Sequence record: SRR22947725_4314
Length of the DNA: 64,000 nucleotides
Strand: one strand, 5' to 3'
Each line of letters opens with the position of its first letter. Position 1 is the first letter of the stretch. The notes beneath the pieces are model-generated. The model was not told the origin of the DNA, did not search any database, and was given only the letters and a program-made list of their open reading frames with translations. Of the stretch, positions 58,957 through 60,204 are shown in pieces. The translations under genes were made by a program, and so were the position numbers.

Positions 58957-59586
58957 TCAGGCTTCAGAGATGATTTGATCGAGCAACGCGCCGTTGACGG
59001 CGCCGGCAACCGATTCGATCGAGCCGTCGGTCTTCACGATCGCCATGGCGGGCTGGAACGCCACGTCGAATCGGTTGTAGATAACGCCAGGGTCATCGTT
59101 GATCTGCGGAAAAGTCAGACCGTGCTTGTCGATGAACCCCTGGAATGACTCATCGTCGCCGGTCCATGCGATTCCGATGAAGTTGACGGAGTCACCGAAC
59201 TTTGCTGCTGCCTCCTCGACCGAGGGGGCTTCACGATTGCAGGTGCTTCAAGTGGGAGCCCAGAACCAGAACACTGTCGGTTTGCCGGCCAGGGTGGTGG
59301 CATCGAGTTCGCCACCGCCAACGAGTGGAGCGCTGAACTGCAGCGCGGCGGGGGCGGCGGACGCATCGCTGTCAGATATCGCATCGTCGCCGGCTGCTGC
59401 ATCACCAGTTACCTCAGCGGCAGGAACCTCTGCAGCGGGCACCTCGGTTGCTGGCTCGACCGCGACCTCCCTCGCCGGTGGCGCTGTCTCGTTCTCCGTC
59501 GCCGAGTCGGTGGCTGACCCACCGCTACACGCCGTCAACAGCAGGCTGCCCGCAGCGATGGCGCCAAGCACCCGTGTCGACTTCAT
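58957..59586 (-). CDS. TlpA/ResA-like thioredoxin-fold lipoprotein with UxxC (probable selenoprotein, 209 aa)
   Basis: Lipobox LTAC; WFWAPT-TGA-STC-NREAP; frame stays open for 96 more codons of Trx fold (FIGIAW, HGLTFPQIND, VAFQP). Confidence 0.82.
59210..59229 (-). promoter_or_regulatory. Candidate bacterial SECIS hairpin
   Basis: GCCCCCUC-GGUC-GAGGAGGC; G-first apical loop 26 nt after the UGA. Confidence 0.6.
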
Positions 59587-59778
59587 GCCGGCACGCTAAC
59601 GCTGGCGCCAGTGGGTGACGGCCCGTGCCTCCTAGGTTTCGCGGACGTTTCGCGGTCATCACGATCACCGTCACCATCGCCATGACCGTCACCATGGCGA
59701 CCAGTATCCCGATCAGCGTGCTCCAGCGAGCGGGATGCGCGCTCGCACCCGCAGATCCGGCCCGTAGCCTTTCTGACG

Positions 59779-60204
59779 ATGAAGACGCGGACCCTGTTGC
59801 TGCTTTCGGTCGGGACAGCACTGATGATCTTGCTCGCCGGTGGTGCGCTGCTGTTCCAGTTGTCCAACCAGGAGTCGACGGGCGCCTCGCTCGCGTTCGG
59901 GCAGGCAACGACTGTTGGCGACGTCGAGGTGACCGTCAATGGATCAGACGTCGTCGCCGACACGCTCGTCGTTTCGGTGGCAATCTCCGGAGTGGACGAC
60001 ATCGACGGTATCGAGAGCTTCCGTCTCGTCACGGGCGATCGACGGCTGGACCCCATTGCTGCACCAGCAGCAGGTCGTTGTGCCGAGATCACAGTTGCCG
60101 TGCAAGAGTGCGCCATCGAGTTCGACATCAGCGCCAGTCAAGGCACGAGCCGAGTCCTGGTCTTGCGTCGTGGTGAAGATCAAGCGACATGGCGGCTCAG
60201 CTGA
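59779..60204 (+). CDS. Hypothetical exported or membrane-anchored protein
   Basis: MKTRTLLLLSVG... hydrophobic N-terminus, beta-rich domain with two Cys. Confidence 0.75.
   Translation: MKTRTLLLLSVGTALMILLAGGALLFQLSNQESTGASLAFGQATTVGDVEVTVNGSDVVADTLVVSVAISGVDDIDGIESFRLVTGDRRLDPIAAPAAGRCAEITVAVQECAIEFDISASQGTSRVLVLRRGEDQATWRLS

Follow-up and report, generated by a model that had tools for sequence, protein, structure and literature searches.

The closest described counterparts of the protein reported here are thioredoxin-fold proteins that act outside the cytoplasm. Mycobacterial DsbE (MPT53) and DsbF, which carry the Cys active sites WCPFC and WCPTC without a UGA codon or hairpin, have been reported as oxidants in vitro, whereas the wider TlpA/ResA/CcmG family, to which ResA of Bacillus subtilis and TlpA of Bradyrhizobium belong, consists of reductases. 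Selenocysteine (Sec, U) forms of such enzymes have also been described: Table 1 of PMC13188914 and the tables of PMC1088965 list UxxC selenoproteins of the thiol-disulfide-isomerase-like and redoxin kinds. The first of the catalogued UxxC families traces to the Sargasso Sea survey, with four UXXC sequences in the tables of PMC1088965. As these families are described in PMC13188914, Sec replaces the first Cys, the Pfam models PF00578 and PF08534 are the same as for the protein analyzed here, and the prediction was made from Sec/Cys pairs together with a bSECIS element; the likeness to these families (PMC13188914, PMC1088965) is one of description and not of example sequences. The catalogue passages of PMC13188914 concerned make no mention of a lipoprotein anchor, of Acidimicrobiia or of a change from Trp to Thr or Gly before Sec. 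The gene presented below is of an already catalogued kind and opens no new class of system. Literature searches found no paper on Sec use in Ilumatobacter, and for selenocysteine or selenoproteins in Acidimicrobiia only one relevant preprint, which reports that Actinomarina, an order of Acidimicrobiia, has Sec machinery and, by prediction, about 5 selenoproteins in each genome (10.64898/2026.04.03.716425).

The locus under study lies in a stretch of 64,000 nucleotides (64 kb; record SRR22947725_4314), which is referred to as the window. The gene listed first in Table 1 is very probably one genuine selenocysteine gene that would encode an exported DsbE/DsbF-like lipoprotein with a predicted UxxC site. 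Its frame starts with an ATG at 59586, which opens the N-terminus MKSTRVLGAIAAGSLLLTAC, and proceeds to GKPTVFWFWAPT-TGA-STCNREAPSVEE, where the internal TGA is codon 113; the terminal TGA occupies 58957-58959 and no other in-frame stop was found in the translation. In the standard ORF list the gene ends at the internal TGA, which leaves a product of 112 amino acids. The initial annotation had proposed a thioredoxin-fold lipoprotein with a UxxC motif, a TGA at the first-Cys column of WCxxC and a frame that stays open past it to 58957. The position and context of the TGA were confirmed by translation and alignment, the open frame was verified as 209 codons with Pfam domains on both sides of the TGA, and the assignment of the product is in agreement with Pfam, the AlphaFold2 model, Foldseek and the lipobox. 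Among the 37 Pfam-supported ORFs of the window, 28 end with TGA and 9 with TAG, and the selenoprotein gene itself ends with TGA; TAA is used as a stop by none of the 37. The G+C content of the window is 63%. Neither a sigma-70-like promoter nor an intrinsic terminator was found around the selenoprotein gene. A scan of the window for further read-through candidates employed a motif filter that was too loose and a hairpin rule that was too strict, and the true hairpin was missed by it.

Table 1. Positions in the window of the predicted selenoprotein gene, its parts and the divergent neighboring gene
Feature	Position	Strand	Basis or remark
Complete predicted selenoprotein gene	58957..59586	minus	209 codons and true stop; translated with TGA=U; same layout in orthologous loci
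Signal peptide and lipobox, MKSTRVLGAIAAGSLLLTAC; Cys20 is the predicted lipidated residue	59527..59586	minus	Sequence
Low-complexity Ala/Pro/Glu/Thr-rich linker, residues 21-79	59350..59526	minus	Length and sequence vary among relatives (alignment A1)
Thioredoxin-fold (TlpA/ResA/DsbE-like) domain, residues 80-209	58960..59349	minus	Pfam, PDB matches, AlphaFold2, Foldseek
Sec codon UGA, residue 113, first position of the U-S-T-C redox motif	59248..59250	minus	TGA at the column in 33/33 sequences
Resolving Cys116	59239-59241	minus	Sequence
Predicted bSECIS hairpin	59210..59229	minus	Lower stem 3 bp, 1x1 mismatch, upper stem 4 bp, loop GGUC 59218-59221
141-residue protein with N-terminal hydrophobic segment, no Pfam match	59779-60204	plus	Upstream of and divergent from the Sec gene; 20/33 locus records

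The product is a predicted lipobox lipoprotein whose domain is closest in sequence to mycobacterial DsbE (MPT53) and DsbF. The lipobox LLTAC at residues 16-20 satisfies the pattern [LVI][ASTVI][GAS]C. A strict lipobox was detected upstream of the Sec codon in 28 of the 33 family members, three others (L128, L134 and L117) also show L-x-[AG]-C by eye, and the distance from the lipobox Cys to U ranges from 52 to 120 residues among family members. Four Pfam models (AhpC-TSA, Redoxin, Thioredoxin_8 and Thioredoxin) matched residues 81-191, on both sides of the TGA, with 50.7 bits (cut-off 26; 2.1e-13) for AhpC-TSA (PF00578) and 38.3 bits (cut-off 26.6) for Redoxin (PF08534). The domain was modeled with AlphaFold2 from a 38-row alignment (mean pLDDT 93.3, pTM 0.88), and Sec, which is domain residue 34, directly precedes a helix spanning residues 35-51 in this model. 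The protein can thus be placed in the TlpA/ResA/DsbE-like thioredoxin-fold family (AhpC-TSA / Redoxin; cd02966), with U modeled at the N-terminus of helix alpha-1. No NCBIfam model claims the protein; its scores for ResA (NF002854; 51.9 bits, cut-off 170) and TlpA (NF047696; 19.4 bits, cut-off 230) stay below the curated limits, so that it belongs to neither of these equivalogs. Some relatives bear the name peroxiredoxin, which was rejected for the protein of the window: the peroxidatic motif is PxxxTxxC/U according to the description in PMC13188914, whereas in the stretch F106-W-F-W-A-P-T-U113 position -7 is not Pro, position -3 is not Thr, and UxxC is present instead.

Comparison with solved structures gave MPT53/DsbE of M. 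tuberculosis (PDB 1lu4) as the best sequence match (E = 1.3e-26; Foldseek 1.1e-16, TM 0.86, 38% identity), together with DsbF of the same species (PDB 3ios; E = 6.5e-24; Foldseek TM 0.93, rmsd 1.2, 37% identity). The active-site stretch WFW-x-P-x-[C/U]-x-x-C-N-x-EAP and the extracytoplasmic location, which for the window protein is predicted, are shared with both proteins, while the window protein differs from them by T-U-S-T-C and by its long low-complexity linker. ResA and TlpA have the same fold (Foldseek E ~1e-10, TM 0.88) and consist, like the predicted window protein, of an extracytoplasmic membrane-tethered domain with a CxxC-type motif, but they are only 17-24% identical to the window domain.

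The host would be an Acidimicrobiia-type actinobacterium. By the established bacterial mechanism, SelB-GTP-Sec-tRNA(Sec) would bind the hairpin 19-38 nt downstream of UGA-113 (loop GGUC) and Sec would be inserted at this codon in place of termination. Judging from sequence patterns, the precursor would be exported and lipidated on Cys20, and the flexible linker of about 60 residues would tether the domain to the outer face of the membrane. Homology suggests that catalysis would be carried out by U113-S-T-C116: the U113 selenolate, at the N-terminus of helix alpha-1, would attack substrate disulfides and C116 would resolve the mixed selenenylsulfide. For this chemistry a TlpA/ResA-type reductase or isomerase role appears somewhat more likely than a DsbA-like oxidase role. 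The same selenoprotein could nevertheless work in the opposite direction, donating its selenenylsulfide in a DsbA-like manner and forming disulfides in exported proteins. This is a possibility to be taken seriously, if with less than even confidence, as the closest solved homologs MPT53/DsbE and DsbF have been reported to oxidize in vitro and no gene for a CcdA/DsbD-type electron donor lies beside the selenoprotein gene in the window. Selenenylsulfides are generally more stable (of lower potential) than disulfides, and a Sec form would be expected to be a poorer oxidant; the reductase activity of the wider family also speaks against an oxidizing role. No cytochrome c maturation genes were found near the selenoprotein gene in the window.

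The interpretation of UGA-113 as a Sec codon was examined among relatives. The codon aligns with the first Cys of CPFC in MPT53, and TGA was present at this UxxC column in all 32 related loci examined, or 33 of 33 sequences when the window is counted (alignment A2, whose 33 rows are the window, L001, L002 and 30 loci from the class sample; L003 is the same place as L117). Three reference-genome loci have TGA at the column. When 401 genomes sampled from the relatives' class were searched in six frames, 188 yielded matches at E <= 1e-10, a tally that, like the one for SelA given below, takes in three or four unpublished genomes (G215, G257, G392, G278); these two tallies are the sole results to which those genomes contribute. 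Exactly one TGA was found in 33 of the 34 best matches of this search, and the sole exception is a Cys paralog adjoining a TGA copy in the same genome. All 30 class loci that were returned were read and contained TGA at the UxxC column. The TGA-form orthologs share only 35-75% protein identity, and the proteins of A2 are 36-75% identical to the window domain. In outgroup and nested relatives the column is occupied by Cys and never by Trp, and the alternation of TGA and Cys that had been suggested as a check on the reading was thereby observed, with TGA in the related loci and Cys in more distant or nested ones.

The protein search returned 119 matches of three kinds. The first are full-length proteins with Cys (WFWAPWCxxCNRE) and the second are P0002 and P0010, in which W at the TGA column is an artefact of pipelines that applied another code. 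The third kind comprises dozens of 'hypothetical proteins' of 115-158 residues whose last letters are ...FWFWAP[TNY]; those with ...FWFWAPT include one from a cultured Ilumatobacter, an NCBI entry of I. coccineus. Such truncated entries show gene callers stopping at this codon in many organisms, which is the splitting of the gene that the initial annotation had anticipated. Because public pipelines cut the gene at the UGA, a conserved, predicted exported redox enzyme is missing from the proteomes of a widespread aquatic actinobacterial class. Weaker matches of 27-34% identity were also found in the same genomes, many with one in-frame TGA (e.g. G070:C1:213309-213866, G238:C1:1516099-1516437 and G334:C4:174601-175155). 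A hand count among the 150 rows listed gave approximately 86 with one TGA, approximately 63 without and 1 with TAG, and the sequences with one TGA suggest further Sec-containing TlpA-like paralogs.

The UGA is followed by a hairpin with the arms GCCCCCUC-GGUC-GAGGAGGC, whose 4-nt loop starts 26 nt after the UGA. If the U of UGA is numbered 1, nucleotides 22-29 (GCCCCCUC) pair with 34-41 (GAGGAGGC). A hairpin with a G-first 4-nt loop at this distance had been noted at the outset, and the GGUC loop listed in Table 1 is the one in question. The 24-nt hairpin folds with -11.6 kcal/mol (z = -2.74), an energy matched by 4 of 200 shuffles. Over the 81 nt that follow the UGA the value is ordinary (z = -0.70), so that energy alone would not tell the hairpin from chance. 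Conservation does. The core CUCGGUCGA is invariant in 33 of 33 sequences, at C26 and at every nucleotide from U28 to A35 (alignment A2), and synonymous sites of the loop region are fixed in all 33, with Ser always encoded by TCG and Val always by GTC. Pairing in the helix amounts to 87.1% of cells, compared with 35-53% when the partner columns are slid by 1-3, and changes on both sides were observed for 3 pairs in 12 cells (e.g. C-G to U-A at 24/39 and 27/36). The covariation score of 0.175 (shuffles 0.079 +/- 0.011) was reached by none of 500 shuffles, a statistic that overstates independence since the sequences are related. The column pair 25/38 is unpaired in 27 of the 32 distinct sequences, and RNAalifold recovers no more of the helix than the 4-bp upper stem. 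The structure accordingly consists of a 3-bp lower stem and a short upper stem, separated by a 1x1 internal mismatch. The hairpin also encodes the conserved peptide EAPSVE, and protein constraint thus contributes to its conservation, but the synonymous sites that never vary and the compensatory changes speak for a further constraint on the RNA itself.

A negative control was provided by Cys-form relatives. The back-translated pattern with which metagenomes were scanned admitted nothing but TGG/TGY at the Sec column; it yielded 80 distant loci of the Cys form and none with TGA. From these (L027-L106) and the Cys copy in L109, 78 distinct sequences were obtained, a few of which are spurious motif matches. 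The hairpin is absent from these Cys-form relatives: none of the 78 reaches 7 of the 8 pairs, the 4-bp upper stem occurs in 1 and GGTC at the loop columns in 8.

The SECIS of E. coli fdhF and the bSECIS consensus are likewise stem-loops located directly 3' of the UGA within the coding sequence, with a small G-first apical loop. The apical loop of fdhF is presumably similar to the GGUC loop of the window. The upper stem of the window hairpin is short in comparison with fdhF and the consensus (4 bp, followed by the 1x1 mismatch and the 3-bp lower stem), and no bulged U was identified in it. The bSECIS model quoted in the legend of Fig. 2 of PMC13188914 asks for a loop of 3-9 nt, an upper stem of 4-16 bp, G in the first two loop positions, a spacing of 16-37 nt from the UGA and an MFE <= -7.5 kcal/mol. 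The window hairpin agrees with every constraint given in that legend (4 nt, 4 bp, GG, 26 nt and -11.6 kcal/mol), and a search for a SECIS, which had been recommended along with the original observation, is answered by this agreement with PMC13188914 and by the covariation. No Rfam family, and hence no SECIS model, was matched in the window at the gathering threshold, and an E-value scan of 59100-59300 gave only chance matches with E above 4; Rfam does not, therefore, cover this hairpin. The core motif occurs in the window 5 times against 2.67 expected, and two exact extra matches were dismissed as chance, being antisense to, or far from, any in-frame TGA.

None of the 54 ORFs scanned in the 64-kb window is a selA, selB or selD gene and the window contains no tRNA; the Sec machinery of the source organism is inferred from its relatives. 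SelA, SelB (adjoining SelA), SelD and tRNA-Sec(UCA) were all detected above curated cut-offs in the 3 relatives searched for all four. SelA was above its cut-off in 275 of the 401 sampled genomes of the relatives' class, many of them of approximately 1 Mb. Comparison of the two outputs by hand showed SelA in every one of the 30 sampled genomes in which a TGA copy was verified, against the background of 275/401, and in only 3 (G075, G328, G178) of the 11 genomes with a best match free of stops (G206, G012, G075, G242, G328, G178, G347, G247, G379, G083 and G324), absences that are soft because many of the genomes are incomplete. Selenocysteine use thus appears to be the rule rather than the exception in the relatives' class, and the initial remark that it is uncommon among the well-studied Actinomycetota does not describe the lineage at hand. 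The locus adds to the evidence for common selenocysteine use in Acidimicrobiia.

These observations also bear on the idea that UGA-113 is read without selenium, by near-cognate Trp or Cys or under a reassigned code, which would result in a W/CxxC protein. The translation of the homologous codon as W in P0002 and P0010 shows that some pipelines applied such a code. Nevertheless, TGA terminates 28 of the 37 Pfam-supported ORFs of the window, the selenoprotein gene included, the residue of relatives at the column is Cys and never Trp, the TGA form was found only in SelA-positive genomes among those examined (30/30), and the codon is followed by a bSECIS-type hairpin specific to the TGA form. Read-through without selenium is accordingly very improbable, and Sec insertion is the preferred reading.

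Public contigs from four runs (X1, X3, X12 and X15, placed at >= 90% likeness; X1 may be the source sample) were inspected for sequence variation, because an assembly error had been named as a possible refutation. No variant is listed in these contigs for 59173-59271, a stretch covering the codon and the hairpin and flanked by variants on either side. The TGA is bridged, with more than 31 nt to either side, by record 1 of X1 and record 4 of X12, while contigs of X3 and X15 cover it near their ends. The contigs of X12 and X15, which cover the gene, stem from RNA libraries and may reflect carry-over of DNA rather than expression. A nonsense mutation or assembly error that leaves a pseudogene or two unrelated ORFs would fit the end of the standard gene call at the TGA and the ordinary folding energy of the 81 nt, but is extremely improbable in view of the same TGA in 33 of 33 orthologous sequences of 35-75% protein identity, the frame and thioredoxin fold conserved past it, the unvarying codon in four runs with two bridging contigs, the implausibility of independent errors in the relatives given 30 genomes, and a downstream half without a start codon, in which strand beta-1 and the active site would be missing.

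A maximum-likelihood tree was calculated from 55 domain rows: in addition to the 33 Sec forms it includes 21 Cys proteins found by the protein search and the Cys copy of L109, but none of the truncated entries, nor P0002 and P0010 (with TGA translated as W), P0007, P0008 or the fragments P0011-P0013. The 33 Sec rows group with 6 Cys rows (39 in all) and are set apart from 16 Cys rows of other actinobacteria by a branch with 100/99 support. The distribution of Sec requires 3 changes on this tree, at least 2 of which are forced by well-supported branches. The simplest reading of the tree would be one gain of Sec and two reversions to Cys, although the order of these events is not demonstrated, as the root is a midpoint root only. 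The residue before U in the 33 Sec forms is T in 13, G in 13, Y in 3, W in 2, F in 1 and N in 1, whereas Cys forms have W; the Thr of the window protein is encoded at 59251-59253 on the minus strand. One natural tandem Sec/Cys pair was found in L109 (genome G118), where a Cys paralog with WCSVC and without the hairpin-type peptide lies directly upstream of the Sec copy with FUSVC (positions 1074 and 1824).

We tentatively propose, as a reading that is on balance doubtful, that across Acidimicrobiia, abundant marine lineages included, this envelope DsbE/DsbF-like lipoprotein was ancestrally a Sec protein and is predominantly one today, and that reversion to Cys is confined to lineages with a duplicate copy or without the Sec machinery they once had. 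The thiol-disulfide chemistry of their envelopes would then depend on the supply of selenium, and the exchange of the otherwise invariant Trp of WCxxC for Thr or Gly would be a specific adaptation of the active site or of the UGA context to Sec. The family provides a clean example of a covarying bSECIS with natural Sec-to-Cys reversions and is suited to a comparison of Sec and Cys in an extracytoplasmic thioredoxin fold.

The selenoprotein locus is syntenic with that of relatives. Across 33 locus records, the dihydrolipoamide dehydrogenase gene (lpd) was found as a neighbor in 22 and a conserved small protein in 20, with an epimerase/DUF1731 gene in 14 and an amine oxidase gene in 11 on the downstream side; these counts are lower bounds because most flanks extend for only 1.5 kb. 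The divergently encoded 141-residue protein might act together with the oxidoreductase. Upstream of the selenoprotein gene (window 59650-59700) there is a short, imperfect repeat rich in GTGA/CGGT. Contigs of several runs break or vary in length at this repeat, with loose ends and one joint at 59657-59695, which suggests copy-number variation among strains. Elsewhere in the window, positions ~17000-45500 contain a large cell-envelope polysaccharide cluster with several family-2 glycosyltransferases, two ABC-2/Wzt-type exporters, a DegT aminotransferase, an epimerase/dehydratase, a sugar transferase and an RgpF-like protein.
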